NCBI GenBank assembly: GCA_017994695.1
Contig: JAGOKF010000010.1
Location: 230 to 64,229, forward strand
Reading direction: 5' to 3'
Length of the DNA: 64,000 bases
Source of the DNA: Myxococcota bacterium
GTDB taxonomy: Bacteria; Myxococcota_A; UBA9042; DTJE01
Under the pieces are notes generated by a model. That model made no database searches. It was not told the DNA's origin and worked only from the letters and a program-made list of their open reading frames with translations. The position numbers and the translations under genes were made by a program. Position 1 is the first letter of the stretch. Each line of letters begins with the position of its first letter. Shown here one piece after another: positions 18,708-31,284 of the stretch.

Positions 18708-19162
18708 GCCCGGGTCTCCTCCTCGCAGATGCGCTTGACCAGCACCGGGTCCACCTCCTCCCGGTGGGCCTTCATCACCGCGCCCATCAGCCGGCCCGCG
18801 GCCGAGGGCCCCGACAGCCCCTGTTCCCGGGCCACCCGCCGGACCAGTTCCCGGGTGGCCGCCTCGTCCAGTTTCCGGGGCAGGTAGGTGGCCAGGTAGT
18901 CCACCTCGAAGCGATACTTCGCGCAGACCGGGTGATCCGCCTGCCCGGCGTCCTGAAGTTCCGCGATGGCCTTCCGCATCATCTTCTGGTAGCCCTCGAT
19001 GACCTCCCGGGCGACCGCGTCGGTCATGGGCCCGGTGAATCCCGGGGAGGTCCGCTTCTCGGCCAGGCGGGTCTTCACCATGCGGATGCAGTCCACGACC
19101 TCCCTCCGGCCCTCCTTCAGAGCCTGGTTCAACTCGGCGGTCAGTCGTTCCTCGATGGTCAT
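18704..19162 (-). CDS. GatB/YqeY domain protein
   Basis: YqeY-like sequence throughout. ATG 19160-19162 preceded by GGAGGA. Convergent 4-nt overlap with PBP gene. Confidence 0.7.
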   Translation of the reverse strand: MTIEERLTAELNQALKEGRREVVDCIRMVKTRLAEKRTSPGFTGPMTDAVAREVIEGYQKMMRKAIAELQDAGQADHPVCAKYRFEVDYLATYLPRKLDEAATRELVRRVAREQGLSGPSAAGRLMGAVMKAHREEVDPVLVKRICEEETRA

Positions 19163-19303
19163 CGGGTCCTCCAGCAAGTCCGGCAGATGGTACACCGGAA
19201 CCGGACCGACGTGGAAAAAACGATTGCGTGATTCGGGGGTTGTCGGCTATGATCCCGCCCTGTTCTGGATTGCCGAGGGACCTCGGCGTTGCGAGGAGGC
19301 TCC

Positions 19304-19828
19304 ATGAAGTTGATGAGCGGAAAGGTGGCGGCACTGGCCCATGACCTGGTGAGCGCCCTCATCGCCTCGGGATCCATCGAGGTGCGTCCCGACGAGTTGA
19401 AAGAGGTCGAGATGGACCTGGAGTCCGTCTTCCGGGAATACATCCGCCTGGACCGGGAGATCACGGACCGGGCCCGGGACGTCATCGCCACCCAGAAGCG
19501 GGATCACACCGAGCTGCACAAGGTGAAGGCCCAGATCGCCCGAGAGCGGAATTTCGCCGTCGGGGAGGGGATGCTGGAATACCTCACCGCACAGATCATC
19601 GAGACGCTGATCCACAGCCGCCACGTGGAGGAGGTCTTCGGGGCCGACAACGACCTGGTGGTGCAGATGACCCCCGTGCTCCGGAAGCACCTGGCCGCCG
19701 ACGAGGAACTGGACGGGGAGGTCCGCAAGCGGATCCGGAACCTGACCGAGGGCACCCTGGCCTGGGACGTCCAGTACCGGAAGGTGATGGAGGAACTGCG
19801 CAAGAGTCGCCGCCTGGACGACGCCTGA
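19304..19828 (+). CDS. DUF507-like conserved hypothetical protein
   Basis: RBS GAGGAGG 4 nt before ATG 19304. Helical, charged 174-aa protein. Confidence 0.55.
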   Translation: MKLMSGKVAALAHDLVSALIASGSIEVRPDELKEVEMDLESVFREYIRLDREITDRARDVIATQKRDHTELHKVKAQIARERNFAVGEGMLEYLTAQIIETLIHSRHVEEVFGADNDLVVQMTPVLRKHLAADEELDGEVRKRIRNLTEGTLAWDVQYRKVMEELRKSRRLDDA

Positions 19829-19954
19829 TCCCCCCGGGCCCATTCCGATTCGCCGTGCCGGATCCCCCGCCGGGTCCGCGCCCGATGGACTGCGTCCTTT
19901 CCTCCGCGTTCCTCCTGCGAATTCCGCGGCCGGACTTGCGAGCAGGACTCGTTT

Positions 19955-21187
19955 ATGCATACTGAACGCGACCCCGTTCCGGGATCGACCGTGGCCGACG
20001 CCCTGGAAGCCAAGCGCATCGACCTGCACGACTCGTCGTCCCGGCGTCGGGTTTCCGGATCCGGCCGGAGGAACTCCCTCCGCTGGCTGGACGAGGAGGA
20101 GTTCCGCCAGCAGGTGCGGAAGGAACGGGAACGTTCCGACCGGACGGGACGTCCCTTCTCGGTCCTCTTCGTGACCCTTCAGGAACCGCGGGATCGCCGG
20201 CGGATGGTCCGACTGGCCTCGGATCACCTCCGGCTGCTGGACGACATCGGTCAGGTCGGCGACCTGCGGCTGGGCATCCTGCTGCCCGAGACCCCCATCG
20301 ACGGGGCCCGGACGCTGGAACAGCGGCTGCTGGAAGGGGCCCGGCAGGCCTCGATTCCCTGCGCGATCAAGTCCTATGCCTACGGCGGACTCTGCGAGAC
20401 CCCCGATCTCTGCGGGCAGGTGTCCTGCTCGGGCAACTGCGTCGGCCGGGGCGTCCCCCGGGGGACCCCCCTGCTGTCCGATGGCGATGGCGCACCGGAC
20501 CCGGGGAATCCGGCACCCGCGAAGGAATCCGGTCCGGACGGAAGACTCGCAGACACCCCGTCGAGCATCTTCCGGCTGCTGGCGCCCCCCATCCCGTGGT
20601 GGAAGCGGGTGCTGGACGTCCTGGGGGCCTCGGTGCTGCTGGTGGCCCTTTCCCCCGTCCTCGCCCTGGCGGCGGTCGCGGTGCGGTTCTCCTCCCCCGG
20701 GCCGATCATCTTCCGCCAGCAGCGGGTCGGACTGGGAGGCCGGGTCTTCTGGTTCTACAAGTTCCGGTCCATGTACGTCGATGCGGAACAGCGGAAGAAG
20801 GACCTGGAGCACCTGAACGAGGCCCAGGGACCGGTGTTCAAGATCGCCCGGGACCCCCGGATCACCCCGGTCGGCCGCTTCCTCCGCGTCACCAGCATCG
20901 ACGAACTGCCCCAGTTGTGGAACGTCCTCCGGGGGGACATGTCCCTGGTCGGCCCGCGGCCGCCCATCCCCGAGGAGGTACGGCAGTACGCCCCCTGGCA
21001 CCGGAGGCGCCTGGAGGTCCCCGGGGGTCTGACCTGCATCTGGCAGGTCAGCGGGCGATGCGACATCCCCTTCGAGGACTGGATGCGGATGGACCTCCGG
21101 TACTCCCGCCAGCAGTCCCTCGCCACGGACCTGGCCCTGCTCTGGAAGACGGTCGGGGCCGTCCTTTCCCGCCGGGGCGCAAGGTAG
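19955..21187 (+). CDS. Polyprenyl-phosphate sugar transferase (Bac_transf/WbaP-like C-domain) fused to N-terminal degenerate GGDEF-like domain
   Basis: C-terminal TM + sugar transferase motifs (PIIFRQQRVG, KFRSM, SLVGPRPP). N-terminal 170 aa resemble a diguanylate-cyclase fold with GGDEF replaced by GDLRLG. Confidence 0.75.
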   Translation: MHTERDPVPGSTVADALEAKRIDLHDSSSRRRVSGSGRRNSLRWLDEEEFRQQVRKERERSDRTGRPFSVLFVTLQEPRDRRRMVRLASDHLRLLDDIGQVGDLRLGILLPETPIDGARTLEQRLLEGARQASIPCAIKSYAYGGLCETPDLCGQVSCSGNCVGRGVPRGTPLLSDGDGAPDPGNPAPAKESGPDGRLADTPSSIFRLLAPPIPWWKRVLDVLGASVLLVALSPVLALAAVAVRFSSPGPIIFRQQRVGLGGRVFWFYKFRSMYVDAEQRKKDLEHLNEAQGPVFKIARDPRITPVGRFLRVTSIDELPQLWNVLRGDMSLVGPRPPIPEEVRQYAPWHRRRLEVPGGLTCIWQVSGRCDIPFEDWMRMDLRYSRQQSLATDLALLWKTVGAVLSRRGAR

Positions 21188-21192
21188 GGTCC

Positions 21193-22653
21193 ATGCGCCT
21201 GCTGCTGGTCAACACCAACACCTGCCGGGACCCGTACCCGGTGGCGCCCCTGGGCGTGTGCCTGCTGGCATCGGCCCTCCGGGACGAGGCGGAGGTGCGG
21301 GTCTTCGACGGGACCTTCCGGGGCAGCGAGGGCCTGCGGGAGACGGTTGAGGACTTCCGCCCGGATCTCGTCGGGCTGTCGGTGCGCAACGTGGACGACC
21401 TGGTGCCCCGGGAGACGACCTTCTTCCTGGACGAGATCCGCCGGGCCTTCGTGAACCCCTTGCGAGAGGCCACCGGGGCTCCCCTGGTCCTCGGTGGCAG
21501 CGCCTTCAGCCTCTTCCCGCTGGAACTGATGCGGGCCTGGCAGGCGGACTACGGAATCGTCGGCGAGGGGGAGGAGGCCCTGCGGACCCTGGTCCGCACG
21601 CTGGAACATGGGGGGGATCCCCGGCGCATCCCCGGACTGCTGGTCGCCGGGGACCGGGAAGTCCCGGCGGCGCCGCGAAGGCCGGCACCGGGTCCCCTGC
21701 GAATCCCCTTCTCCGAGGTGGACCGGCACATCGACTTCGGCCCCTACCGGCACCTGGGTTCGTACCCCATCCAGGCCCGGCGGGGATGCACCCATCGGTG
21801 CATCTACTGCACCTACCCGGCCCTGGAGGGACGCCGTCACCGCCTGCGGGATCCCGAGGAGATCGCCCGGGAGATCGCCGAGGCCGCGGACCGGATTCCC
21901 GGGGTCACCTTCGAGTTCGTGGACAGCACCTTCAACGATCCCAGAGGCCACGCTGAGGCCATCTGCCGGGCCCTGATCCGCCGGGACCTCCGGGTGCGGC
22001 TCCGGACGATGGGAGTCAATCCCGGACACGTGACCGACGAACTGCTGGACCTGATGCAGCAGGCCGGCTTCGCCCAGATCGACTGCACCCCCGACTCGGC
22101 CTCGCCGACGATGATCCGGGCGATGGGCAAGAACTTCTCCCCGGAAGACCTCGTGCGAACGGCCCGGGGAATCCGGCGCAGGGGGATGCCCACCGCGTGG
22201 TTCTTCCTGTTCGGGGGACCGGGAGAGACGGCCGGGACCATCCGGGAGACGATGGATTTCATCGACCGGGAGGTGTCCCCCGAGGACCTGGTGCTGATGG
22301 GCATCGGCCTGCGGATCTACCCCGGGACCCCTCTGCACCGGACCGCGATCCGGGAGGGGATCGTGTCCCCGGAGGAGGACCTGGTCCGTCCCCGGTTCTA
22401 CGTGGCGCCGGACCTGGGCTACGAGCGCATCCGGGACACCCTCGAGGAGGCCGCCGCCGTCCGCCCCCACTGCCTGCCCCCCGGCGAGAACCGCCCGTCG
22501 CCGGAGATGCTGCGGCAGGCCGTCGCGATGCGCCGGGACCAGGGGCTCACGGAGCCGATGTTCCGCACGCTGCTGCGGATCCGCCGGTCGTGGCCCCGCT
22601 TCGCCGGGATCGCCGCCCCCGGGAATGCTCCGGTGCCGTCCGTCACGAAATGA
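21193..22653 (+). CDS. Class B radical SAM enzyme (N-terminal B12-binding domain + radical SAM core)
   Basis: Starts 5 nt after the sugar transferase stop (MRLLLVNTN...). CxxxCxxC = CTHRCIYC. The long N-terminal extension in ORF 20596..22653 is an out-of-frame overlap artefact. Confidence 0.8.
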   Translation: MRLLLVNTNTCRDPYPVAPLGVCLLASALRDEAEVRVFDGTFRGSEGLRETVEDFRPDLVGLSVRNVDDLVPRETTFFLDEIRRAFVNPLREATGAPLVLGGSAFSLFPLELMRAWQADYGIVGEGEEALRTLVRTLEHGGDPRRIPGLLVAGDREVPAAPRRPAPGPLRIPFSEVDRHIDFGPYRHLGSYPIQARRGCTHRCIYCTYPALEGRRHRLRDPEEIAREIAEAADRIPGVTFEFVDSTFNDPRGHAEAICRALIRRDLRVRLRTMGVNPGHVTDELLDLMQQAGFAQIDCTPDSASPTMIRAMGKNFSPEDLVRTARGIRRRGMPTAWFFLFGGPGETAGTIRETMDFIDREVSPEDLVLMGIGLRIYPGTPLHRTAIREGIVSPEEDLVRPRFYVAPDLGYERIRDTLEEAAAVRPHCLPPGENRPSPEMLRQAVAMRRDQGLTEPMFRTLLRIRRSWPRFAGIAAPGNAPVPSVTK

Positions 22654-23989
22654 CGTGGGTCCCCGCCCGGATGCCCCAGAGGCTTCCCGCTTCCCGGTAG
22701 AACCGGTCCAGGGGCAGGCGGGTCCGCAGCACGCAGTTGAAGAAGTTGTAGCGGGCCAGGTCGAAGTCCACGATGCGGTCCCGCATCCGGCGATGCAGCG
22801 CCGTGCCGGGCATCGGGGTCAGCACGGTGTACCCGGCGTAGGCGGTCTGGTGGGCCGAGGCGAACTCGGCCAGGGCGTGGAATTCGGGGAGGTCCCAGTC
22901 GGGGTCCACCACGTAGTTCGCCCGGAGCAGGATGCCGTGGTCGGCGAAGACCCGGAGCCCCTCGGCGATGTGGTCCGGGGTCAGGGATTTCCGATAGCGC
23001 CGCAGGTCCTCGGGGCGGGGGGACTCGACGCCGGTGATCACCACCCGGAGCCCCGCCCGGGCCAGGCGCCCGATCAGGTCCGGATGGCGGGCCGCCGTGT
23101 CCAGCCGGATGTCCATCACCAGGGTCTTGCGGATGCCCTCGGCCTCCAGGCGGTCCAGCAAGGCGTGGGTCCAGGGGATGTCCACCACCGTGTTCGCGTC
23201 GGCGAACCGCACCACCTCGTACTCGTCCAGCAGCCGCATCTCGGACACGATGCTGTCGATGGACCGGAGGAAGTAGCCTCCCCGGCGCTGGGGCCAGATG
23301 CTACAGAAGGAGCAGCGGGAGGTGCAGCCGAGGGAGGTGTACAGGTAGGTCACGGGCCTCGGGTCCCCCCCGACGGTGTAACTGTCCATCCAGGGTCGCA
23401 GGTAGGACCGGTCGGGCACCAGGAAATCCCGGCCGGCGGGCTCCAGGGGCGGAGGGGGAGCGGGCATGGGCTGCAGGCGACCCGACCTCCGGAACCGGAC
23501 CCCGGGAAGGTCCGCGGTCCGTCCCCGTTCCCGGAGGGATCGCAGCATGTCCCGAAAGACCAGCGCCCCGTCACCGGGGATCAGGACGTCCACGTCCGGG
23601 TGGTCGTAGTCCCCGGGGCAGAGGGTGGGATGGATGCCTCCGGCGACGGTCAGGATGTCCGGGTCCACGAAGCGGGCCGCCCGGAAGATCTCCATGCCCG
23701 CGGGGTGTTCCGAGGCGATGAAGGTCACCCCCACGACGTCGGCCGGGTGGTCCCGGAGGTAGGCGACCATCCAGTCGAAGACCGGGGGCGATTCGGGGCG
23801 CAGGTCGTACTCGCCCTTGAGGTCCAGGAATGCCACGTCCGCCTCCTCCCGGGCGGCCACCGCCACGGTCAGAAGTCCCAGGGGCGGACCCACCAGCCTC
23901 GTGTGAACGAATCGCCGGACCTCCTCGGGGGCATGGTCCCGCAGGGCGTTGCAGGGCGAACGGGGCGGGTTGACTAGGAGCACCTTCAT
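22643..23989 (-). CDS. Class B radical SAM enzyme (B12-binding + radical SAM), second copy
   Basis: Real start ATG 23987-23989 (MKVLLVNPPRSP...). CxxxCxxC = CTSRCSFC. The N-terminal 193 aa of ORF 22643..24568 are junk. ATGA overlap with upstream crotonase. Confidence 0.8.
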   Translation of the reverse strand: MKVLLVNPPRSPCNALRDHAPEEVRRFVHTRLVGPPLGLLTVAVAAREEADVAFLDLKGEYDLRPESPPVFDWMVAYLRDHPADVVGVTFIASEHPAGMEIFRAARFVDPDILTVAGGIHPTLCPGDYDHPDVDVLIPGDGALVFRDMLRSLRERGRTADLPGVRFRRSGRLQPMPAPPPPLEPAGRDFLVPDRSYLRPWMDSYTVGGDPRPVTYLYTSLGCTSRCSFCSIWPQRRGGYFLRSIDSIVSEMRLLDEYEVVRFADANTVVDIPWTHALLDRLEAEGIRKTLVMDIRLDTAARHPDLIGRLARAGLRVVITGVESPRPEDLRRYRKSLTPDHIAEGLRVFADHGILLRANYVVDPDWDLPEFHALAEFASAHQTAYAGYTVLTPMPGTALHRRMRDRIVDFDLARYNFFNCVLRTRLPLDRFYREAGSLWGIRAGTHVIS

Positions 23990-24594
23990 CGCGCCTCTTC
24001 CACCGACGGTCGGATGCGAAGCCTGCGGGCGGCCATCTCGGCCATGCCCGGCCCCTGGGCCCTCTCCACGACGCCGTGGATCAGGCCCAGGCGGGCCGCC
24101 TCCTCGGCGTCCACCAGGCGTCCCGACAGCACCAGGTCCAGGGCCTGGGAGATCCCGATCCGGCGGGTCGCCCGCCAGGTTCCCCCGCAGCCGGGCATCA
24201 CCCCGAAGGAGGACTCGGGAAAGCCCAGCACCGCGCCGGGAGCCGCCAGGATCAGGTGTGCGCACAGCGCCAGTTCCAGGCCGCTGCCCAGGCAGGCGCC
24301 CTCGACCCACGCGATCACCGGAATCGAGAGGTCCGAGATGGCCGTGAAGAGGGCCTGGTGGCGGGAGATGGCCTCCCGGTCCCGCCACAGCGGCTGCATC
24401 GCCGCCCGGTCGGCCCCGGCGGAGAAGTGCCGTCCCTTTCCCCGGATCACCAGTCCCCTCACCTCGCGTCTCCGGACCTCCGCCAGGGCGCCTTCCAGGC
24501 TTTCGAAGAACTCCGGGTCCATCAGGTTTCCGGGAGGCGCGTCGAGCCACCAGTGCCCGATCTCCCATTCCCCCACTTCCAGCAAGACCTTCAC
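23986..24594 (-). CDS. Enoyl-CoA hydratase/isomerase (crotonase) family protein, short form
   Basis: Crotonase fold (GKGRHFSAGAD..., oxyanion-hole region). GTG 24592-24594 preceded by GGAGGGGG. GTGA overlap with upstream stop. Confidence 0.7.
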   Translation of the reverse strand: MKVLLEVGEWEIGHWWLDAPPGNLMDPEFFESLEGALAEVRRREVRGLVIRGKGRHFSAGADRAAMQPLWRDREAISRHQALFTAISDLSIPVIAWVEGACLGSGLELALCAHLILAAPGAVLGFPESSFGVMPGCGGTWRATRRIGISQALDLVLSGRLVDAEEAARLGLIHGVVERAQGPGMAEMAARRLRIRPSVEEAR

Positions 24595-24938
24595 CGCGCC
24601 CCCTCCGGCCCGACCGCCAGCCCGCAGGCGGTGTCCCGGGAATGGCTGATCGCCACCCGGACCCCGGCCAGCACGCCCGGGCCTCCGGGGACCTCGTCCA
24701 GCAGCCTGGGGGCCCCGTTCGGACCCCGTCCGATCCGGAAGTCCCTGGGAGTTCCAGGCAGTTCCCGGTACTGCCACAGCCGGGCCAGGGCCTCCTTCAG
24801 GGCCATCCGGCCAGCCCAGGTCCGCAGCGGAGCCCCTGCCAGTTCCGCCGCCTCCCCGTCGTCGAAATACCGGGATCGCTCCCGGACCAGGCGTTCCTCG
24901 GCCTCGGGAATCGGCAGGGAGCAGAGGACCGCCCTCAC
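24591..24938 (-). CDS. AcpS-family 4'-phosphopantetheinyl transferase paralogue, divergent (Mg-site Asp replaced)
   Basis: C-terminus of ORF 24591..26696(-). AcpS motif 2 RMALKEALARLW and motif 3 VRVAISHSRDTACGLAV. N-terminal GxD motif reads AVLCSL. GTG start overlaps crotonase stop (GTGA). Confidence 0.5.
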   Translation of the reverse strand: MRAVLCSLPIPEAEERLVRERSRYFDDGEAAELAGAPLRTWAGRMALKEALARLWQYRELPGTPRDFRIGRGPNGAPRLLDEVPGGPGVLAGVRVAISHSRDTACGLAVGPEGAR

Positions 24939-25654
24939 GACGCCACCTCCCGGGCCAGTTCCAGGAAGAGTTCCGTTTCCCGGCGAAGGGCCTCCTCCCG
25001 GGGGCGGCGCCAGGCATTCCCCACGGACTCCAGGATCGCCCGGACCTGGAGCGGCGTCCGATCGCCGATCCAGCGGTGGATGAGCGCCCGGCATTCCTCC
25101 TCGAGTCGTCCGGCCGGGGCCACCCGGTCCACCAGGCCCCACTCCAGGGCCTCCTCGGCCCCGATCAGCCGCCCGGTCAGGATCCACTCCAGTCTTCGGC
25201 TTCGGGCGATCCGGTTCCCCGTCTCCAGGGTACCCCCGAGGCCCGGCATCAGGCCCAGTTCCGATTCGGGAAATCCCATCATCGCCCCCGAGGCCGCCAC
25301 CCGGGCATGGCAGGCCAGGGCGATCTCCATCCCCGCCCCGAGGCACTGGCCGGAGATGGCGGCGACGACGGGCACCGGGGCATCCCGGATGCGGTCCAGC
25401 AGCACCTTCCCAGCATCCAGGGACCGGGCCAGGGACTCGGGGTCCGGCAGCCGTTTCCGCAGGGCCTGGAGGTCCGCTCCACCGCAGAAGTGCCTCCCGA
25501 ATCCGGTCAGCACGACGGCCCGGATCCCCTCCTGGCCGAAAAACCTCTCCAGGATTCCGGGATCCACGAACACGGGGTCGTCCAGCGTGTTCCGGGGCGG
25601 GCGATCCAGCACGATCCGGCCCAGGTCCCCGTCCCGTTCCAGCCGCACCTCCAT
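24935..25654 (-). CDS. Enoyl-CoA hydratase/isomerase (crotonase) family protein
   Basis: Crotonase motifs (GFGRHFCGGADL, AAISGQCLGAGMEIALACH). RBS GGAAGGGGAGG before ATG 25654. Confidence 0.8.
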   Translation of the reverse strand: MEVRLERDGDLGRIVLDRPPRNTLDDPVFVDPGILERFFGQEGIRAVVLTGFGRHFCGGADLQALRKRLPDPESLARSLDAGKVLLDRIRDAPVPVVAAISGQCLGAGMEIALACHARVAASGAMMGFPESELGLMPGLGGTLETGNRIARSRRLEWILTGRLIGAEEALEWGLVDRVAPAGRLEEECRALIHRWIGDRTPLQVRAILESVGNAWRRPREEALRRETELFLELAREVAS

Positions 25655-25675
25655 GCCCGCCTCCCCTTCCGCCGT

Positions 25676-26764
25676 TCAACCCGGCCCGCCTGTCCCTTCC
25701 ATGCCGGAAACCACGGGAGGGCGCCACCAGGGCAGGCCCGTCTGCCGGAATCGCATCCCGCAGCGATCCCGCCATTCCCGCTCCCGTGGTCCCGGGGGTG
25801 GCCACGGGGCCTGGAACAGGCCCGCCAGGGCGATCCTCAGGTCGTCCTCGCTCAGAAGGCCCGATCGCACCGCCTCCCGGCAGGTCCGGAAGAACAGGGC
25901 CTCGGCGTCCCGGGTCAGTTCCTCCATCGATCCGGCTGCCACGACGGGCGGTGCCGATTCCTTCGAAACTGCCGGCGCCTCGGCCGGCCCCCAGCATCCC
26001 CGGCGGATCCGGTCCCCGATGGCCGATTCCAGCGCCTCGTAGGACCGGGCCTCCTCGGCCCCCATCCGCAGGCGGTAGAAGGCCACCGATCGGGCGATGG
26101 TCTTCATGCCCACCGACTCCATCAGGGTCAGGGGCCGCAGGCCGGGCCAGGCCTGTCCGAAGGCCCGGTCCACCTGTTCCTGGTCCAGGCCCCGCCCGAC
26201 CAGGTGGACGGCCCAGGCCTGGGAGGGGAGCATGAGGCGGTTGACCGCCTGGGCCTGGCGGGCCCCGATCTGTACGACGGAGGACAATCCCAGCCGGGCC
26301 GCCAGCGTTACCAGGCGCTGCCGGACCGGTTCCCCGCCACCTTCCGGAAGGATCACCTCGCAGAATCCCGACAGGATCGACGGGTAGAACAGGTGCAGGC
26401 CCAGGACCTCGGGACGGATCTCCCAGGGGAGCAGCGACGAGGAGTTGGTCAGCACCAGGCCGTCGGGTGCCCGGAAGGGAAGCCACCATTGCAGCACCTC
26501 CCGCTTCGACTGCAGGTCCTCCTCGACGGTCTCGAACAGCACGTCGAAGGGGGCCTCGGGCTTGGTGCCGACCAGGAGGCCCCCGACCTTCCCGACCATG
26601 GAGCCGGCGTCCCCCAGACGCCGCGCCTCCCGATCGAGGTGCTTCAGGCACGCGGCCAGGCGATCCCGGTCCCGGGAGGCGACGGTCACGTCCCACCCGG
26701 CGCCGAGGATCGTCCGGGCGGCGTCCCTCCCCATCCGCCCGGTGCCGATGACGAGGATCCTCAC
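25676..26764 (-). CDS. 3-hydroxyacyl-CoA dehydrogenase family (NAD-binding + C-terminal domain)
   Basis: Rossmann VRILVIGTGRMG, LTNSSSL, GLHLFYP (HFFNP-like). GTG start 26762-26764 with GGAGGG RBS. GTGA overlap with upstream stop. Confidence 0.75.
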   Translation of the reverse strand: MRILVIGTGRMGRDAARTILGAGWDVTVASRDRDRLAACLKHLDREARRLGDAGSMVGKVGGLLVGTKPEAPFDVLFETVEEDLQSKREVLQWWLPFRAPDGLVLTNSSSLLPWEIRPEVLGLHLFYPSILSGFCEVILPEGGGEPVRQRLVTLAARLGLSSVVQIGARQAQAVNRLMLPSQAWAVHLVGRGLDQEQVDRAFGQAWPGLRPLTLMESVGMKTIARSVAFYRLRMGAEEARSYEALESAIGDRIRRGCWGPAEAPAVSKESAPPVVAAGSMEELTRDAEALFFRTCREAVRSGLLSEDDLRIALAGLFQAPWPPPGPREREWRDRCGMRFRQTGLPWWRPPVVSGMEGTGGPG

Positions 26765-27666
26765 GGGAGATCCCTCCAGTGGCGGGCGCCCCACCAGGGC
26801 CGGGAATCGGGGAGCATCCGGGCCAGGGCCACCAGGGAGGTGCCGATGCCGCACTCCACGAACCCGGACGCCCCCGACGCCGCCTCCACCGCCAGGGGCC
26901 ACCGGACCGGCGAGCAGAGATTCGCCCGGATCATCGCCAGGGCCTCCGCTGCCGTCCGGGCCACCGATCCGTCCACCGCGGAGCAGACCGGGACGTCCGG
27001 GTCCCGCCAGGGTTCCCGGACCGCGATCCCGGCGAGCCGGTCGGCCGCCCGGGAAAGCCGTCCCGGATGGTGGTAGGCGACCCGGTCCGTCCACTGGACC
27101 GCCTTCAGGGCCCCGGCCTCCATCGCCCGTGCCTGGAGCACCTCCAGGGTCTCGGGGGTCCCGGCGACCACCAGGGACCAGGGGCCGTTGACCAGCACCA
27201 CCTGCGCCCGATCCATCCCCGGCAGCGACAGGACCTCCTGCTCCCCCAGTCCCACGATGCCCAGCATCCCGAGGGGGTCCGACTCGTAGGCCTCCCGGAC
27301 CAGGCGCCAGGCCTCCCGGACCAGCATCAGGCCCGACGCGACCGGCAGGGCACCCGCCGCCACCACGGCCGCGTACGCTCCGAGGCTGTGGCCCAGCGTC
27401 CCGGCCACCGTCACCCCGGCCTGGCGCACCGCCTCCGCCACGGCGATCCCGAAGGCCTGCAGGAAGACCTGCCGGGCCCCTTCCTCGAGCCCGGAGGCGT
27501 CCTCGACGGCTACCCGCGCCAGGTCTGTCCCGACGACCTGGGAGGCCTCCTCCATCACCCGGTCGAAGACCGACCGGTGGGCCTCCCGGAAGGCCTCCTC
27601 GGGTCCCGCGGGCTGCACGAAGGCCCCGGGAAAGGCCAGGGCGACGGGACCTCGAATCCTCTCCAT
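26761..27666 (-). CDS. Malonyl-CoA:ACP transacylase-like acyltransferase (FabD family)
   Basis: Active-site GHSLGAY, 301 aa, ATG 27664-27666. Confidence 0.75.
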   Translation of the reverse strand: MERIRGPVALAFPGAFVQPAGPEEAFREAHRSVFDRVMEEASQVVGTDLARVAVEDASGLEEGARQVFLQAFGIAVAEAVRQAGVTVAGTLGHSLGAYAAVVAAGALPVASGLMLVREAWRLVREAYESDPLGMLGIVGLGEQEVLSLPGMDRAQVVLVNGPWSLVVAGTPETLEVLQARAMEAGALKAVQWTDRVAYHHPGRLSRAADRLAGIAVREPWRDPDVPVCSAVDGSVARTAAEALAMIRANLCSPVRWPLAVEAASGASGFVECGIGTSLVALARMLPDSRPWWGARHWRDLP

Positions 27667-27668
27667 CC

Positions 27669-28790
27669 CTAGCCGTCCCCACGGCGCAGGAGCCAGCCGG
27701 CCTGCATGAACTGGCTGACCTCCGTGACGAAGGAGGCCAGGCGACGTCCCGGGGCCAGTCCGGTCTCCCGCAGGAACGCGTCCATCGCCAAAAACGTCAT
27801 CGGCGGCCCGGCGTATCCCATCCGGGCCATCCGCTGGTCGATGCGATCCCTCGGGAACCCGATTCCCTCCAGTTCGGCGGCCACCGACTCGACGATGTGC
27901 CGGGCCGGCAGGTTCACCTGGAGGTGGTCCACCTCCAGGGGATCGATGCCCGCCCGGGCCAGCATCCGCAGGTATCCCTTCAGAAAGACGCTTCCCCCGG
28001 GCTCCTGGAACACCCCTGTCGCCAGCTCGTTCCGGAAGGTCTGTCGCAGGTGATGGGAGGCGGTGCGGAACTCCTCGACCGGGTTCATCCAGTAGGCCGG
28101 CCGGAGGTTGAACATCAGCGACGGTCGGTTCCCGCCCACCGATTCCACGTAGGAGCACTCCACCTCGATCACCGGGCCCCGGGCAGGAGGATCCACGCCC
28201 AGCACCGCCGCTCCCGCCCCGTCCGACAGGAACCACCGGAGGAACAGCGACTCCTTGTCCACCTTCTCCTGGTTGAAGTACTCGGCCCGGAGTTCCGACG
28301 ACGAGATCCCCGCCGACACCGCCAGGGCCCGGTCGTAGTGGCCGTCGGCCAGCAGGTGGTGGGCCAGGTAGAGGGCCTTGTAGGCCGACGTGCAGTTGGC
28401 ATGGATCGAGAACTCGGCGCAGGAGTCGATGCCCAGGGCCTTCTGGATGCGCACCGAGGCCGTGGGCATCTGGTCCTGGTGCGCGGACCCGTAGCAGAGG
28501 AGGTCCACGTCCGCAGGGACCATCCCCGCCGCCTCCAGGGCCTGCCGGGCCGCCTTCTCGGCCATCGAGACGTTGTCCTCGGTGAACTGCCTCGTCCGGG
28601 GATCCAGGGCGTAGTGGACCACCTCGATGTCCAGCAACTGGCGCATCACCGGGCCCATCTCCTCCATCCAACGGCGGATCCGCGGTGGCGCGTCCACGAG
28701 GGGTCCCAGGACCTCCTGGGCCCGTTCCACGGGGATCGGTTCCCCCGGGAGATGGCGACCGGTCCCGAGCAGGAAGACCTTCCGGCTCAT
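27669..28790 (-). CDS. KAS III-like (FabH/thiolase-fold) condensing enzyme
   Basis: FabH-like fold, Cys in HANCTSAYKA, 373 aa. RBS GGGAGGG. ATGA overlap with upstream KAS stop. Confidence 0.7.
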   Translation of the reverse strand: MSRKVFLLGTGRHLPGEPIPVERAQEVLGPLVDAPPRIRRWMEEMGPVMRQLLDIEVVHYALDPRTRQFTEDNVSMAEKAARQALEAAGMVPADVDLLCYGSAHQDQMPTASVRIQKALGIDSCAEFSIHANCTSAYKALYLAHHLLADGHYDRALAVSAGISSSELRAEYFNQEKVDKESLFLRWFLSDGAGAAVLGVDPPARGPVIEVECSYVESVGGNRPSLMFNLRPAYWMNPVEEFRTASHHLRQTFRNELATGVFQEPGGSVFLKGYLRMLARAGIDPLEVDHLQVNLPARHIVESVAAELEGIGFPRDRIDQRMARMGYAGPPMTFLAMDAFLRETGLAPGRRLASFVTEVSQFMQAGWLLRRGDG

Positions 28791-30010
28791 CCCTCGCCCT
28801 CCCACCGACGGAAGATCACCACCCCGTTCTGGCCGCCGAAGGCGAAGGAATTGCTGACGACGGTGCGGAGGGAGGCGCGCCGGGGGCCGTCCGCCACATA
28901 GTCCAGGTCGCACTCGGGGTCCGGGCAGGCCAGGTTCAGCGTGGGCGGGATCACCCCCTCGACCAGGGCCTTCACCGCCAGCACCGCCTCGACGCCGGCA
29001 GCCCCCGACAGGCAGTGTCCCGTGGCGCCCTTGGTCGAGGAGACCGGCATCCTCCGGGCATGGGATCCGAAGACGCGGTGGATGGCCTGGGTCTCGTAGA
29101 GGTCGTTCAGGGGGGTCGATGTCCCGTGGGCGTTCACGTAGTCCACGTCCTCCGGCGCCAGGCCCGCGCTGGCCAGTGCCCGCTCCATCGTCCGGGCCAT
29201 GCCGACGCCGCCGGGTTCCGGCGACAGGATGTTGTAGGCCTCGCTGGAGAGTCCCGGGCGGTGCATCACCGCCAGGATGCGCGCCCCCCGGCGCCGGGCG
29301 TGGTCCAGGCTCTCCAGGACCAGGAAGCCGGCCCCCTCCCCCATCACGAACCCCTTTCGCCGGGCGTCGAAGGGCCGGGACAGGCCCTCGACGTCGTCGT
29401 CGGGTTCCGCCAGGGCCATCAGGGCCGTGAATCCCCGGATGTCCAGGGGGTTCAGCGCCGACTCGGCCGCCCCGGCCACCACCGCGTCGCAATCCCCCCG
29501 GACGATCCACTCCCAGGCCGACGCCAGGGCATAGGCCCCGCTGCTGCAGGCGGTGCTGACCACCATCGAGGGCCCGGTCCAGCGTCCCCGCAGGGAGATC
29601 CAGGCCGCCGATGCCGAGGTCATGTTCCGGAGGATTCGGTTTGGATCCTCCTCGCCGTCCATGGGGGCATAGCCGGTGCCGGTCGCTCCGACCACGACCC
29701 CCACCCGGGAAGGATCCACCGCCGGCGCCGCCAGGCCCGCGTCGGCCACCGCCGCCTCGGCGCAGCAGGTCGCCGCCTGGGTGGCCCGGGTCATCTGGCT
29801 CCGGGTCCGGGGCTTGAAGCGCCCTCGGAAGACCTCCTCCGCCCCGTCAGGAAACTGCACCCCCACGGGGACCTCCAGGCCGGCGGGGTCGAAGTTCGTG
29901 TACCGCCGGATCACCCGGCGCCGATCCAGGATGCCCCGCCACGTCTCGTCCACGTCCAGGCCCAGGCCGGTCATGCAACCCAGGCCGGTGACCGCCACGA
30001 CCGGTTCCAT
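28787..30010 (-). CDS. Beta-ketoacyl-ACP synthase I/II-like (FabF/FabB family)
   Basis: Cys site VVSTACSSG. His sites HGTSTPLND and KGATGHCLSGAAG. ATG 30008-30010 with GGCGAGGAG RBS. Confidence 0.8.
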   Translation of the reverse strand: MEPVVAVTGLGCMTGLGLDVDETWRGILDRRRVIRRYTNFDPAGLEVPVGVQFPDGAEEVFRGRFKPRTRSQMTRATQAATCCAEAAVADAGLAAPAVDPSRVGVVVGATGTGYAPMDGEEDPNRILRNMTSASAAWISLRGRWTGPSMVVSTACSSGAYALASAWEWIVRGDCDAVVAGAAESALNPLDIRGFTALMALAEPDDDVEGLSRPFDARRKGFVMGEGAGFLVLESLDHARRRGARILAVMHRPGLSSEAYNILSPEPGGVGMARTMERALASAGLAPEDVDYVNAHGTSTPLNDLYETQAIHRVFGSHARRMPVSSTKGATGHCLSGAAGVEAVLAVKALVEGVIPPTLNLACPDPECDLDYVADGPRRASLRTVVSNSFAFGGQNGVVIFRRWEGEG

Positions 30011-30011: not shown

Positions 30012-30425
30012 TCACTCCTCGCCGGGGTCGTTCCCCGGTTCGACACCCCGCAGGAATTCCCCGGGCACCGGGGCCGGACCCCCGGCCACCGCGTCCCGGA
30101 AGGCGATGACGGTCCGGGCCCGGGCGATCGTCTCCCCGTCCCGAAGAACCCGGTAGCCCAGGGTCAGTCGGAAGTCGTCCTCCTCCCGCAGGCGGACCTC
30201 CACCTCGAGACGGTCCATCAGGCGGGCCGGCCGAAGGAACCGCATCGAGAGATCCGCCATCACCGGGACGCAGCCATCCGGGTGCACCGGCAGCCCCCGG
30301 TCCACCAGGAAGCGCAGGCGGGCCCGCTCCAGGAAGGCGACCAGGCGGGCGTGGTGGGCGATGCCGTAGGAGTCCACGTCCTCGAACTCCACCGTCACCG
30401 GCACCCGCAGAGACGCTTCCTTCAT
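30012..30425 (-). CDS. Hotdog-fold acyl-CoA/acyl-ACP thioesterase (4HBT/YbgC-like)
   Basis: 137-aa 4HBT-like sequence (VTVEFEDVDSYGIAHHARLVAFLERAR). ATGA overlap with AcpS stop. Confidence 0.7.
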   Translation of the reverse strand: MKEASLRVPVTVEFEDVDSYGIAHHARLVAFLERARLRFLVDRGLPVHPDGCVPVMADLSMRFLRPARLMDRLEVEVRLREEDDFRLTLGYRVLRDGETIARARTVIAFRDAVAGGPAPVPGEFLRGVEPGNDPGEE

Positions 30426-30835
30426 CCCGTCTCCCCCTCTCCCAGGGCGGCCCCGTCATGGACCAGCACCGCCGCCCGGATCTCCTCGGGGTCCCGCCAG
30501 ATGCGGACCTCCAGGACCGTCCCCCGGAGTCGGACGGCCAGGTCCCCGTGCAGGAGGACTTCCGCCCGGTCCGCTTCCGGATCGGCGATCACCTCGCACT
30601 CCCGCAGGTCGTAGGGCTCCTCGAGGGCCTTCCAAAGGGCCTCCTTGACGCAGAAGCCCGCGCACAGCCGTTCGGCGTCCCGCCCGTCCCCGCGGGAAGC
30701 CCGAAGGCGCTCCCCGGGGCCGAACACCCCTTCCAACGGTTCCCTGCGGAATCGCTCGATCCGCTCTGCGTCCACCCCTGCCCCCCGCAGGGGCCCCGGG
30801 CCGTCAGAGGTCCACGTGCAGAATGTCGTCCCCAT
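30422..30835 (-). CDS. acpS: Holo-ACP synthase (AcpS-type phosphopantetheinyl transferase)
   Basis: AcpS motifs GAGVDAERIERF (GxD), FCVKEALWKAL. ATG at 30835 would overlap the ACP gene by 32 nt. The true start may be the in-frame CTG ~30 nt downstream. Confidence 0.65.
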   Translation of the reverse strand: MGTTFCTWTSDGPGPLRGAGVDAERIERFRREPLEGVFGPGERLRASRGDGRDAERLCAGFCVKEALWKALEEPYDLRECEVIADPEADRAEVLLHGDLAVRLRGTVLEVRIWRDPEEIRAAVLVHDGAALGEGETG

Positions 30836-31112
30836 GACGCACGATCGCCACCGAGAGGTCCACCACCTGCCCGATGGTCTGGGCGGGCTTCTTCATCAGG
30901 TGCCGGGCCAGGGTCTTCAGTTCGATCCCGATCCCCCAGCGCTTCCGGACCTTCTCCAGCAGCGAGAGGAACATCAGCGAGTCCCCCTCCAGCTCCTCGA
31001 TGATCCGGGTCCCGGGGTGAAGCCGGGATCGATCGATGTCGCACTCGGCAGCGAAGAAGTCGTACACCAGGTCGGTGATCTCCTGCACGGTCGCCGGGTC
31101 GAGTTCCTTCAT
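30804..31112 (-). CDS. Acyl carrier protein
   Basis: Phosphopantetheine-attachment motif LEGDSLMFLSLL. RBS GGGAGGAA 5 nt before ATG 31110-31112. First gene of the operon. Confidence 0.8.
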   Translation of the reverse strand: MKELDPATVQEITDLVYDFFAAECDIDRSRLHPGTRIIEELEGDSLMFLSLLEKVRKRWGIGIELKTLARHLMKKPAQTIGQVVDLSVAIVRHGDDILHVDL

Positions 31113-31284
31113 CCGGTTTCCTCCCGCCTCTGGTGGGTCCGTTCCATCCCGGCCGGGAAATCCTCCCGCATTCTCCCCGCGCCCGGCGGAAAGTCAAGGG
31201 AAGGCCCCGTTTCCGCCATCCCCCGGCCCGCGCCCCTGCGGCGAAATGCACCGGGAGTCCCGCGCTTCTGCTATCCTCCGCCGG
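31113..31284. promoter_or_regulatory. Divergent promoter region between ACP operon and Cys-rich hypothetical gene
   Basis: 172-bp non-coding gap upstream of both first genes. No confident sigma-70 hexamers found by eye. Confidence 0.3.

Follow-up and report, generated by a model that had tools for sequence, protein, structure and literature searches.

We identify two convergent genes, rSAM1 and rSAM2, in a 64,000-nucleotide stretch of DNA from a Myxococcota MAG (here called the window), and on balance we favor the view that they encode different cobalamin-type radical SAM enzymes that are core members of one conserved cassette of approximately 12 genes, whose products would assemble and modify a small acyl or polyketide chain on a dedicated acyl carrier protein (ACP). 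This carrier-protein-based lipid or polyketide pathway is present in many uncultured anaerobic bacteria, and our literature search found no paper describing the cassette. Most likely, each enzyme performs a C-alkylation or C-C-forming reaction distinct from that of the other, with an intermediate tethered to pantetheine as substrate, in a pathway with no enoyl reductase (ER).

Two distinct radical SAM proteins with predicted B12-binding domains

The gene pair comprises the following features.

21193..22653, + strand: rSAM1, 486 aa, B12-binding radical SAM protein of a TsrM/BzaD/TIGR04072-like clade
22643..23989, - strand: rSAM2, 448 aa, B12-binding radical SAM protein, final gene of the ACP operon
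22643..22653: 11-nt 3' overlap of the convergent rSAM1 and rSAM2; TCACGAAATGA contains both stop codons

Both open reading frames are real genes. Their GC contents by codon position (0.72/0.51/0.91 for rSAM1 and 0.71/0.48/0.92 for rSAM2) show a coding-type bias that is lacking in the open reading frames antisense to them, and both gene calls were recovered independently in five metagenome contigs. The rSAM1 TGA occupies 22651-22653 on the + strand and the rSAM2 TGA 22643-22645 on the - strand (TCA when read on the + strand), which confirms the convergent arrangement with stop codons overlapping by 11 nt given in a preliminary description of this DNA. An identical overlap is seen in two relatives (L006 and L009), while the junction is a 6-nt gap in L008 and holds a 2.4-kb insert in L007. 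In other phyla the orthologous genes are co-directional or divergent, and the convergent overlap is therefore a gene-order accident specific to the Myxococcota lineage and no feature of the system.

Both proteins are of the class-B radical SAM type, as first described, judging from Pfam domains, cobalamin (Cbl) and SAM motifs, and predicted folds, with Cbl binding itself being a prediction. Pfam scores are 49.0 and 53.8 bits for the B12-binding domain PF02310 (cut-off, 32.1) and 88.7 and 54.7 bits for Radical_SAM PF04055 (cut-off, 29.5) in rSAM1 and rSAM2, respectively. The cysteines of the [4Fe-4S]/SAM motifs, CTHRCIYC in rSAM1 (residues 199-206) and CTSRCSFC in rSAM2 (residues 222-229), are invariant as CxxxCxxC across 45 and 54 aligned relatives. 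The AF2 models (pLDDT, 91.9 and 91.5) both superpose on B12-radical SAM structures, with top PDB matches to enzymes of this kind, including TsrM and OxsB; neither model lacks the B12 fold, and SAM- and Cbl-binding motifs are present in both. Aligned with each other, the two proteins share 24% identity, which argues against a recent duplication and settles the choice between duplication and distinct subfamilies in favor of the latter. Given this divergence, the separate subfamilies, and the different cofactor environments described below, we regard them as two separate catalysts and not as an iterative pair that arose by duplication; the earlier suggestion of iterative or successive methylations by paired enzymes finds no support.

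Among the curated NCBIfam families, rSAM1 scores highest against TIGR04072, the model for a “lipid biosynthesis B12-binding/radical SAM protein” (324.7 bits, just under the cut-off of 360), which is also the top-scoring family for all 45 aligned relatives (best match, E 1.8e-107, an estimated ~360 bits). Other scores are 194.9 bits for BzaD and 140.4 bits for the TsrM model TIGR04428 (cut-off, 500), followed by the AprD4-type NF033070 (60.5 bits; cut-off, 500), BchE (55.7 bits; cut-off, 481), and HpnR (40.9 bits; cut-off, 650), so that rSAM1 falls under the cut-off of each of these last four models as well. The top Foldseek match of the model is TsrM (6wte; TMq, 0.80; E 5e-32), which aligns also by sequence (E 3e-36). 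Using motif definitions for TsrM and TokK from the literature (PMC9204698), we find in an alignment with TsrM, TokK, and OxsB the Cbl motifs G61xS63xR65, G101-G102, and G124-E125, which correspond to Gly65-x-Thr67-x-Arg69, GG, and GE of TsrM. Arg65, invariant in the rSAM1 family, stands at the position of TsrM Arg69, a residue that sits under the cobalt (PMC9204698), and D301 aligns with the ribose residue D335 of TsrM. The segment D244-S245-T246, with a nearly invariant Thr246, aligns with D271-S272-E273 of TsrM, in which Glu273 is a ligand to the unique iron that replaces SAM and is the basis of the non-radical mechanism (PMC9204698). From these residues, rSAM1 probably has the usual binding of SAM to the cluster together with TsrM-like tuning of the cobalamin, and an sp2 or activated carbon may be its target.

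rSAM2 belongs to a tightly conserved family (approximately 446 aa, with 45-58% identity across phyla) for which no curated NCBIfam model matched above its cut-off; in the same profile search TIGR04072 gave no match to rSAM2, and the AprD4-type NF033070 gave 22 bits (cut-off, 500). The best matches are HpnR (123.1 bits) and then BchE (93.4 bits), and JGI calls some homologs “hopanoid C-3 methylase,” as would be expected if the pair were HpnR/HpnP-type hopanoid methylases or a BchE-type cyclase that had come to lie here by chance. We give this identity scarcely any credence and consider it effectively refuted by the curated cut-offs (650 for HpnR and 481 for BchE) and by genomic context, since the conserved neighbors are ACP and ketosynthase (KS) genes and the 64 kb hold no squalene-hopene cyclase or bacteriochlorophyll genes. 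rSAM1 and rSAM2 alike lie outside the BchE, HpnP, and HpnR families, a grouping that the preliminary description had named as a way in which it could fail.

Foldseek matches of the rSAM2 model are TsrM, AprD4 (TM, 0.74-0.76), OxsB (0.69), MgmA, CysS, and TokK. The highest TM-scores belong to AprD4, a cobalamin-independent radical SAM dehydratase; fold by itself is thus no proof of Cbl use, and this result counts against reading rSAM2 as a Cbl enzyme. However, the sequence alignment with AprD4 extends over the radical SAM half only, and the N-terminal domain aligns by sequence to TokK, TsrM, and OxsB and not to AprD4. The motifs here are G87xT89xI91xS93, G117-G118, G139-D140 (Asp replacing Glu), and D264-A265-N266; the first aligns with AxSxYxW of TokK, the GG pair with GG, and D264-A265-N266 with the TokK ‘GGE’ motif D250-A251-N252. 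Because it combines a TokK-type D-A-N with a small hydrophobic residue under the corrin, the predicted active site fits hydrogen abstraction by a 5'-deoxyadenosyl radical followed by transfer of methyl from methyl-cobalamin to an sp3 carbon.

The ACP operon and its neighbors

As proposed at the outset, the pair spans two transcription units: rSAM2 ends a tightly packed minus-strand operon, mostly with 4-nt overlaps, that begins with an ACP gene, and rSAM1 follows a + strand glycosylphosphotransferase gene, beginning 5 nt after it. The features around the pair are listed below.

19955..21187, + strand: polyprenyl-phosphate glycosylphosphotransferase (Pfam Bac_transf, 215.9 bits; TIGR03025, 282.5 bits against a cut-off of 295.6)
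23986..24594, - strand: short crotonase, 202 aa (Pfam ECH_1, 117.6 bits; both catalytic Glu positions; without the C-terminal helical part)
24591..24938, - strand: small conserved ORF (115 aa) flanked by the crotonase genes
24935..25654, - strand: crotonase / enoyl-thioester hydratase-dehydratase, 239 aa (Pfam ECH_1, 141.5 bits; both catalytic Glu)
25676..26764, - strand: 3-hydroxyacyl-thioester dehydrogenase-like protein, 362 aa (3HCDH_N, from the annotation of the identical gene call)
26761..27666, - strand: malonyl-CoA:ACP acyltransferase-like protein with GHSLG (Pfam Acyl_transf_1)
27669..28790, - strand: StlD/DarB-like KASIII-type ketosynthase (NF005293, 89.1 bits against a cut-off of 450)
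28787..30010, - strand: FabF-like ketosynthase (Pfam ketoacyl-synt and Ketoacyl-synt_C)
30012..30425, - strand: 4HBT (hot-dog) thioesterase (Pfam 4HBT_2, 70.3 bits)
30422..30835, - strand: AcpS-type phosphopantetheinyl transferase (PPTase) (Pfam ACPS, 33.5 bits; start uncertain)
30804..31112, - strand: dedicated ACP with GDSL serine (Pfam PP-binding, 25.3 bits)
31170..31197, - strand: putative sigma-70-like promoter (TTGACT-16-GAGAAT, 9/12; consensus match only)

The sigma-70-like site, just upstream of the ACP gene, is the sole match in 18600-32000. ACP orthologs in the cassettes share 35-79% identity, and alignment with the orthologs of L089 and L090 places the PPTase motif GxGxDxExIxRF upstream of the start at 30736 called on the metagenome contig. 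The thioesterase is found also in L086, L087, L089, and L090. An intact Cys-His-His triad is present in the FabF-like ketosynthase (‘STACSSG’, ‘AHGTSTP’, and ‘ATGHCL’), which scores 387 bits against fabF (cut-off, 494), and the acyltransferase-like protein scores 117 bits against MdcH and 103 bits against FabD in NCBIfam, both under the cut-off.

The KASIII-like ketosynthase is the best conserved protein of the cassette (51-55% identity across phyla), and its family profile aligns over the full length with StlD 5gk0 (E 2.5e-25). Its Cys133 is invariant, the triad His could correspond to either Asn293 or His298, and Tyr326 occupies the position of the Asn in the ‘GNTGSAS’ stretch of StlD, which we take to be the triad Asn. 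Besides scoring under the NF005293 cut-off, the protein thus departs from the Cys-His-Asn triad, and the missing Asn counts against a clear assignment of its reaction.

Among the remaining genes, orthologs of the 362-aa dehydrogenase carry both 3HCDH_N and 3HCDH, and the best PDB matches of the 239-aa crotonase are ordinary enoyl-CoA hydratases. The short crotonase reads ‘GLELAL...FPES’ and is conserved in the cassette. The 115-aa ORF has no Pfam match at default thresholds, but its family shows faint matches to 4PPT_N/AASDHPPT_N, the N-terminal half of Sfp-type PPTases (best member, 3.9e-05), and orthologs occupy the equivalent position in L089 and L090. Pfam and NCBIfam profile searches detected no ER-type domain in any cassette protein.

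We also considered and rejected an HMG-synthase beta-branching cassette. HMG-CoA synthase models score 27-30 bits (cut-offs, 244-360), the decarboxylating KS of such a system requires a Cys-to-Ser change where the window KS retains Cys, and both window crotonases resemble ordinary hydratases rather than ECH1/ECH2.

Linkage of the two families across phyla

rSAM1 and rSAM2 occur with a shared cassette in Myxococcota, Bacteroidota, Spirochaetota, and Rokubacteria, with a variable gene order. This cassette comprises the ACP, PPTase, 4HBT thioesterase, FabF-like KS, StlD-like KASIII, malonyl acyltransferase, 3-hydroxyacyl dehydrogenase, and two crotonases. A Bacteroidales MAG (L089) has the same 12 genes in a different order, and L090 has 12 genes in the order of the window, with a true TIGR04072 member (379.8 bits) in the place of rSAM1. 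Since rSAM1 scores under the TIGR04072 cut-off and shares 33% identity with this member, we assign it to a sister clade.

An rSAM1 ortholog (at least 40% identity) lies within 10 kb at 30 of the 77 genome loci with an rSAM2 ortholog, and at 17 of those 30 it is directly downstream of rSAM2 on the same strand. Where at least 8 kb is available on each side (34 loci), 20 loci have an rSAM1 ortholog and another 5 a more distant rSAM1-like protein. Twenty-six loci have at least five of the six scored core genes, and an rSAM1 ortholog is present at 22 of them. From locus to locus, the identity of the rSAM2 ortholog to its window counterpart is correlated with that of the rSAM1 ortholog (r = 0.95). 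Approximately a quarter to a half of rSAM2 orthologs are found in other contexts, for example in L014, with only acyltransferase-PPTase-ACP genes, another B12-radical SAM gene, a sulfotransferase, and a BtrH-like protein, so that the two are often but not always partners. An rSAM1 homolog is likewise seen without FAS-type genes in L086. Because orthologs of both are found within the same cassette in several phyla, a functional tie to the ACP locus, in which the preliminary description had placed both genes, is supported.

Could the two genes nevertheless be unrelated neighbors, with rSAM1 serving the glycosylphosphotransferase in envelope glycan or polyprenyl chemistry and rSAM2 alone acting in the ACP pathway? 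The position of rSAM1 close behind the Bac_transf gene, on the strand opposite the ACP operon, speaks for this, as does a glycosylphosphotransferase gene near rSAM1 in L006, L007, and L009. However, in L007 the two are separated by 3.7 kb, and beyond the Myxococcota relatives rSAM1 has the ACP cassette nearby but no glycosylphosphotransferase homolog. PBP1A-YqeY-DUF507-PGT looks like a housekeeping block abutted by the cassette, and the glycosylphosphotransferase is a lineage-specific neighbor outside the conserved cassette. We consider separate functions improbable.

The cassette would probably be labeled as ladderane by genome-mining tools, and a ladderane or ladderane-precursor cluster of the anammox kind has some points in its favor: the top curated family of rSAM1, TIGR04072, carries the model name rSAM_ladder_B12, ‘ladderane’ BGC calls are reported from phyla that include Myxococcota and Fibrobacterota (PMC9902471), and one relative (L088) resembles the Kuenenia clusters (PMC2649909) in that its ACP gene is followed by a phytoene-desaturase-like gene. 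Yet ladderanes are known from anammox Planctomycetota only (PMC9902471), the source here is a Myxococcota MAG, and rSAM1 does not reach the TIGR04072 cut-off. The window moreover has no amxFabZ-type dehydratase, phytoene-desaturase-like (amine-oxidase-type) gene, or KS/CLF-like inactive KS, and the Kuenenia homolog of rSAM2 lies outside any lipid cluster. This identity appears very unlikely.

Proposed role of the cassette

Under the favored reading of one joint cassette, the PPTase would activate the ACP, the acyltransferase would load malonyl onto it, and the FabF-like KS would extend the chain. The 3-hydroxyacyl dehydrogenase and the crotonases would then convert the 3-keto to a 2-enoyl thioester with no further reduction, although a housekeeping ER could act in trans. 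The StlD-like ketosynthase would either prime the chain or join or cyclize keto and enoyl partners. rSAM1 and rSAM2 would differ in the alkyl group, most likely methyl, or the C-C bond that each introduces into the pantetheine-tethered intermediate, and the hot-dog thioesterase would release the product. B12-radical SAM methylases have been crystallized with pantetheinylated substrates (CysS 9n1b/9n1c and TokK 7kdy, from PDB titles), and we infer methyl transfer for rSAM1 and rSAM2.

One or both enzymes may instead be non-methylating and catalyze radical ring closure, rearrangement, dehydration, or C-C coupling on an unsaturated carrier-bound chain, which we regard as a minor but real possibility. 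OxsB performs a ring contraction, AprD4 a diol dehydration, and BchE a cyclization, and the first two are among the structural neighbors of rSAM2. Because the cassette has no ER, radical-accepting enoyl intermediates are to be expected, and similar logic is found in the ladderane ‘type c’ scheme of KS, reductase, dehydratase, and a radical SAM enzyme acting on 2-enoyl-ACP (PMC10139942). Against it stand the Cbl-binding motifs, invariant in both families, the sequence alignment of the rSAM2 N-terminal domain to TokK, TsrM, and OxsB and not to AprD4, and the nearest curated families of rSAM1 (BzaD, TsrM, and PhpK), which are methyltransferases.

Comparison with known systems

TsrM is the closest solved structure to rSAM1 and shares with it the Gly-x-Ser/Thr-x-Arg, GG, and GE motifs and the ribose-binding Asp, but it has Glu273 in place of Thr246 and belongs to thiopeptide biosynthesis rather than to an ACP pathway. 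In the case of rSAM2, TokK/ThnK and CysS are B12-radical SAM methylases with pantetheinylated substrates, and a carrier- or pantetheine-bound substrate, as in TokK and CysS, fits its ACP context. TokK and CysS, both among its structural matches, are however proteins of 620-680 aa with extra C-terminal domains compared with 448 aa, and their carbapenem and cystobactamid pathways differ from the window cassette. The sequence alignment of rSAM2 with TokK is limited to the N-terminal ~150 residues (E 4e-10), and the position of TokK Trp76 is taken by Ser93.

At the level of the locus, a lipid-type ACP/ketosynthase cluster is the location common to the window and the true TIGR04072 member of L090. 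The Kuenenia clusters kuste2802-2805 and kuste3603-3608 resemble the window in that a B12-radical SAM gene is accompanied by KS genes and a dedicated ACP, and radical tailoring of an incompletely reduced acyl-ACP has been proposed for them (PMC2649909, PMC10139942). In the window, 3HCDH and crotonases replace amxFabZ, and, unlike the anammox clusters, the window has two B12-radical SAM genes and a StlD-like ketosynthase.

The full-length alignment of the KASIII-like protein to StlD recalls the StlD/DarB dialkylresorcinol (DAR)/cyclohexanedione pathway. The reaction of StlD and DarB couples a beta-ketoacyl thioester to a 2-enoyl thioester, and on our analysis the KS, dehydrogenase, and crotonases of the cassette could supply both substrates. 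The DarA model had no match among nine cassette proteins searched against NCBIfam (a set without the thioesterase, PPTase, and ACP), and a literature search found no paper linking DAR clusters with B12-radical SAM genes.

A last comparison is with jawsamycin. Jaw5 is a HemN-like radical SAM enzyme that does not bind B12, and Jaw4 is a type I iterative polyketide synthase. In the Jaw4/Jaw5 system, an iterative synthase without an ER forms enoyl intermediates that are modified by the radical SAM enzyme (PMC13459092), and the proposed cassette would similarly combine radical SAM chemistry with enoyl intermediates formed without an ER.

Two different B12-binding radical SAM genes at one locus

Two convergent B12-binding/radical SAM ORFs with overlapping 3' ends, as the preliminary description had proposed, are borne out in every detail. 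Both proteins, here called rSAM1 and rSAM2, exceed the Pfam thresholds for B12-binding and Radical_SAM, and at a window G+C of ~71% their third-position G+C reaches 0.91 (rSAM1) and 0.92 (rSAM2). Their codon-position pattern matches that of real genes of the same genome, a pattern not seen in the long antisense ORFs. We mapped the genes from a frame plot together with Pfam and NCBIfam, and the features on which the argument rests are the following.

Features of the gene pair and the adjoining cassette
21193-22653, + strand, rSAM1, 486 aa, CTHRCIYC
22643-23989, - strand, rSAM2, 448 aa, CTSRCSFC
23986-24594, - strand, short crotonase, 202 aa, Pfam ECH_1 match ending at model position 178 of 251
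24591-24938, - strand, conserved 115-aa ORF between the crotonase genes, faint 4PPT_N/AASDHPPT_N matches (best member, 3.9e-05)
27669-28790, - strand, StlD-like (KASIII-like) ketosynthase (KS), full-length profile alignment to StlD
30422-30835, - strand, AcpS-type phosphopantetheinyl transferase (PPTase), adjoining the ACP gene
30804-31112, - strand, acyl carrier protein (ACP)

A recent duplication as the origin of the pair is ruled out, since rSAM1 and rSAM2 share only 24% identity in an alignment with many gaps; judged by their sequences, they are different enzymes. The protein identical to rSAM2 is named “cobalamin-dependent protein [Myxococcota bacterium]” at NCBI, the same locus is present on several metagenome contigs, and the feature flagged in the preliminary description is an annotation-level one. 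rSAM1 starts 5 nt after a polyprenyl-phosphate glycosylphosphotransferase gene, on the same strand and opposite to the ACP operon, and that gene is itself preceded by DUF507, YqeY, and PBP1A genes. No cobalamin riboswitch or other RNA element in the window reached its Rfam gathering threshold, and a search for tRNA genes returned none.

The 11-nt overlap of the stop codons was also correctly described, with both stops lying inside 22643-22653. It recurs in the same form (11 nt) in two Myxococcota relatives (L006 and L009), while a third (L008) has a 6-nt gap in its place. In the Myxococcales relative L007, a 2.4-kb insert (L007 11333-13775) parts the two genes, each of which retains its own 3' end, and ~12 nt of junction sequence (CACGTCATTTCG) are found at both insert ends, as if the overlapping 3' ends had been duplicated upon insertion. 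A functional meaning of the overlap was rejected, as the junction has no terminator-like hairpin and the arrangement is confined to close relatives and lost in L007 and L008. We treat it as inherited tight gene packing in one lineage, with no evident function.

The remainder of the 64 kb is housekeeping in character and includes rubrerythrin, 2-oxoacid:ferredoxin oxidoreductase, glycogen, and cyanophycin genes; this content suggests an anaerobic lifestyle. Genes for rubrerythrin, a NuoF-like Fe-S flavoprotein with ferredoxin domains, and a three-subunit 2-oxoacid:ferredoxin oxidoreductase lie together at 52339-59057 (- strand) and point to anaerobic or microaerophilic life, which fits oxygen-sensitive radical SAM enzymes. 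The window also encodes a MiaB/RimO-type radical SAM protein (UPF0004 plus Radical_SAM; 1281-2789, - strand), probably a housekeeping methylthiotransferase unrelated to the cassette. Elsewhere, we observe an ABC exporter with fused membrane and ATPase domains (43841-46150, - strand) divergent from the gene of a cyanophycin-synthetase-like ATP-grasp protein (45819-48410, + strand); their maximal ORFs share ~330 nt at the 5' ends, so that at least one start codon must lie further in. A ~1200-aa protein with four IPT/TIG domains (11036-14674, - strand) adjoins the PBP1A gene.

A compact carrier-protein operon ending in rSAM2

rSAM2 is the last gene of a minus-strand operon whose neighboring genes mostly overlap by 4 nt. 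From the ACP end, the order is ACP, AcpS-type PPTase, 4HBT thioesterase, FabF-like KS, KASIII-like KS, malonyl-type acyltransferase, 3-hydroxyacyl dehydrogenase-like protein, crotonase, 115-aa ORF, short crotonase, and rSAM2. Within 18600-32000, a sigma-70-like match occurs just once, immediately upstream of the ACP gene, and the whole cassette spans ~10 kb. As read from sequence, the FabF-like KS has an intact Cys-His-His triad, both crotonases have two catalytic Glu residues, the ACP carries the DSL serine, and the acyltransferase carries GHSLG; an enoyl reductase-type domain was not found in the cassette. A beta-branching cassette of the HMG type (ACP, KS, HMGS, and two ECH) was considered and set aside: its condensing enzyme does not resemble HMGS, the KS Cys is kept, and the crotonases resemble ordinary hydratases.

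Two of the small proteins are unusual. Because the ECH_1 match of the short crotonase stops where it does, the typical crotonase C-terminal part is missing; both catalytic Glu residues are retained, and its counterparts from other phyla are similarly short (L088, L089, and L090, three loci with rSAM2 relatives; 179-207 aa). The 115-aa ORF faintly resembles the N-terminal half of Sfp-type PPTases and might form a split Sfp-like PPTase with the separate AcpS-type protein, to which its profile-profile similarity is weak (hhalign probability, 12.7%).

The cassette is shared across phyla

Relatives of rSAM2 were confirmed at at least 537 loci (537 of the 600 pattern-matching stretches listed) in a pattern scan of a species-level collection with one genome per species. 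The best 80 of these loci, kept for context analysis, come from MAGs labelled Myxococcales/Deltaproteobacteria, Rokuibacteriota, Bacteroidota, Spirochaetota, Fibrobacterota, Calditrichaceae, Kuenenia, and others. Proteins of the window cassette were searched against them by tblastn, with at least 40% identity defining an rSAM1 orthologue. Such an orthologue lies within 10 kb of rSAM2 in 30 of 77 loci (from the best 80 of at least 537). Where at least 8 kb is available on each side (n = 34), 20 loci have an rSAM1 orthologue, 5 have a more distant rSAM1-like gene, and 9 have none; among loci carrying at least five of the six scored core genes, rSAM1 is present in 22 of 26.

The arrangement of the pair varies considerably. 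Among the best 80 loci, rSAM1 lies directly downstream of rSAM2 on the same strand in 17, mostly from Bacteroidales, and convergent pairs occur only in the Myxococcota relatives L006-L009; in Spirochaetota the genes are ~4 kb apart, and in L012 and L089 they are divergent. Locus L090 (Pfam annotated) reproduces the window order exactly (ACP-ACPS-4HBT-KS-KASIII-AT-3HCDH-ECH-small ORF-ECH-rSAM2), with a B12-radical SAM gene divergent from the ACP end whose product is 33% identical to rSAM1 and scores 379.8 bits against TIGR04072, above the cut-off. In the Bacteroidales MAG locus L089, these twelve genes recur, split into three blocks that differ in orientation. Recurrence of one constant gene set across phyla, but in varying order, usually points to a single functional module. 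Among the loci compared, only the Myxococcota relatives have the glycosylphosphotransferase gene beside rSAM1.

Several loci carry variants of this theme. L088 (variant cluster at 14011-19283) has a phytoene-desaturase-like gene after the ACP gene; its rSAM1 is accompanied by an ACP of its own and neighbors genes for a BtrH_N/DUF4872 protein and an ABC transporter. A minimal version, L014 (10001-18472), comprises rSAM2, an acyltransferase, a PPTase, an ACP, another B12-radical SAM gene, a sulfotransferase, and a BtrH-like protein. BtrH_N/DUF4872 proteins are of an ACP-dependent acyl-transfer type, and these variants hint that a carrier-bound product is passed to an acceptor and sulfated in some lineages. 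Many Bacteroidales cassettes contain a third B12-radical SAM gene, HpnJ-like with 102 bits and far below the cut-off, for instance:

L024 16986-18548, - strand, third B12-radical SAM gene, 520 aa, between the dehydrogenase and StlD-like genes

By tblastn, the phytoene-desaturase-like, BtrH_N/DUF4872, sulfotransferase, and third B12-radical SAM genes are absent from the window. An rSAM1 homologue on a 5.98-Mb contig (P0219) has a different context, with 4HBT and two DUF4070 B12-radical SAM genes. What the variants have in common is a B12-radical SAM enzyme that accompanies a dedicated carrier protein loaded with malonyl.

Families, folds, and active sites of rSAM1 and rSAM2

Both proteins fall short of every curated-family cut-off. 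The rSAM2 family (~446 aa) is very uniform (mean column identity, 68%; n = 54 sequences), and its best curated matches are HpnR (123 versus 650 bits) and BchE (93 versus 481 bits). The rSAM2 model (pLDDT 91.5) matches TsrM, AprD4 (TM 0.74-0.76), OxsB, MgmA, CysS, and TokK. Its cobalamin (Cbl) domain can be aligned by sequence to those of TokK, TsrM, and OxsB, whereas the alignment with AprD4 is confined to the radical SAM half; this speaks for rSAM2 as a probable genuine Cbl binder. Using motif definitions for the cobalamin and SAM sites from PMC9204698, we compared rSAM2 with TokK: G87xT89xI91xS93 stands opposite TokK A70xS72xY74xW76, GG stands opposite GG, and D264-A265-N266 corresponds to the D-A-N version of the “GGE” SAM motif in TokK.

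Among curated families, rSAM1 scores highest against TIGR04072, “lipid biosynthesis B12-binding/radical SAM protein” (324.7 bits versus a cut-off of 360), followed in NCBIfam by BzaD (194.9 bits) and TsrM (140.4 bits). TIGR04072, a family without experimental function, is the best family for all 45 aligned rSAM1 relatives, of which the best (E 1.8e-107) is estimated at ~360 bits, at the cut-off. These scores place rSAM1 in a putative sister clade of TIGR04072. Its closest solved structure is TsrM, both by sequence (E 3e-36) and by fold (TMq 0.80; model pLDDT 91.9). Gly61-x-Ser63-x-Arg65 corresponds to TsrM Gly65-x-Thr67-x-Arg69, whose Arg sits under the cobalt, and Arg65 is invariant in the rSAM1 family; the Gly-Gly and Gly-Glu motifs are present, and the ribose-binding Asp is D301 (TsrM D335). 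The two differ at TsrM Glu273, which replaces SAM as the ligand of the unique iron and has Thr246 at its position in rSAM1. With Arg65 present and the Glu273 equivalent absent, rSAM1 would combine the cobalamin environment of TsrM with a seemingly ordinary SAM-binding cluster. Such a natural variant, with Arg under the cobalt and no Glu on the cluster, bears on the question of polar versus radical methyl transfer.

An StlD-like ketosynthase and the proposed chemistry

The KASIII-like protein is the most conserved member of the cassette (67% column identity over six phylum-spanning sequences). Its family profile aligns end to end with StlD (E 2.5e-25), and against NF005293 it scores 89 bits versus a cut-off of 450. 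Invariant Tyr326 (“GYAGPPM”) stands opposite the Asn of StlD “GNTGSAS”, which we take to be the triad Asn, and the StlD His (mutated to Ala in entry 5gk2) aligns with Asn293, an invariant His298 following five residues on; this catalytic set is unusual for a KASIII-type enzyme. StlD and DarB condense a beta-ketoacyl thioester with a 2-enoyl thioester to a cyclohexanedione. The nine cassette proteins searched against NCBIfam gave no match to the DarA model, and condensation of the StlD/DarB type is only a lead to the cassette chemistry.

If that lead holds, the KS, the 3-hydroxyacyl dehydrogenase, and the crotonases, with no enoyl reductase, would supply beta-ketoacyl and 2-enoyl thioesters for an StlD-like condensation. 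Alternatively, the chain would be elongated iteratively and the radical SAM enzymes would act on enoyl-ACP intermediates, the same logic as in jawsamycin (PMC13459092) and in the “type c” ladderane proposal (PMC10139942). Either route would present rSAM1 and rSAM2 with pantetheine-tethered substrates, as crystal titles indicate for TokK and CysS too; rSAM2 would then be a TokK-like sp3 methylase and rSAM1 its TsrM-like partner. We think it fairly probable that both enzymes belong to a pathway on a carrier-bound chain. Because tethered substrates are expected either way, we assign to them, with less confidence than the pathway itself, C-alkylation (most likely methylation) or C-C bond formation on that chain. 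A less probable extension is that the product, a small lipid or polyketide that is C-alkylated or carbocyclic, represents a class not described so far, made by uncultured anaerobes in several phyla. At least one of the two B12-radical SAM enzymes would then catalyze a reaction new to its class, for example, radical alkylation or ring closure with an enoyl or cyclohexanedione intermediate still bound to the carrier. If true, there would be just two precedents for the tailoring of a fatty-acyl-type lipid by a radical SAM enzyme.

Comparison with known systems

The papers searched on ladderanes, brGDGT, Cbl-radical SAM enzymes, TIGR04072, and DarB/StlD yielded no description of this cassette. A ladderane cluster was rejected: the window has no amxFabZ-type dehydratase, phytoene-desaturase-like, or inactive KS gene, and its source is a Myxococcota MAG. 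Anammox clusters differ from it in their reductive enzymes and host, and the window cassette adds the StlD-like KS and a second B12-radical SAM gene. In “Candidatus Kuenenia stuttgartiensis”, the rSAM2 homologue (L079 3781-5124; 41% identity) is surrounded by genes for a solute-binding protein, a metallophosphoesterase, and beta-helix proteins, with no recognizable lipid cluster among these neighbors. Surveys report “ladderane” BGC calls of unexplained function in non-anammox phyla, including Myxococcota and Fibrobacterota (PMC9902471), and clusters like the one described here may account for some of them. At ~10 kb, the cassette is compact enough to be expressed heterologously, which could give access to a new product and perhaps to B12-radical SAM chemistry not seen before. 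The cassette is an orphan case of B12-radical SAM tailoring in a carrier-protein pathway. According to a 2026 review, radical SAM tailoring of fatty-acyl (“ketoacyl”) lipids has so far been proposed only for ladderanes and jawsamycin (PMC13459092); to these the cassette adds a third setting, compact and widespread, in which two different B12-type radical SAM enzymes are tied to a dedicated ACP system.
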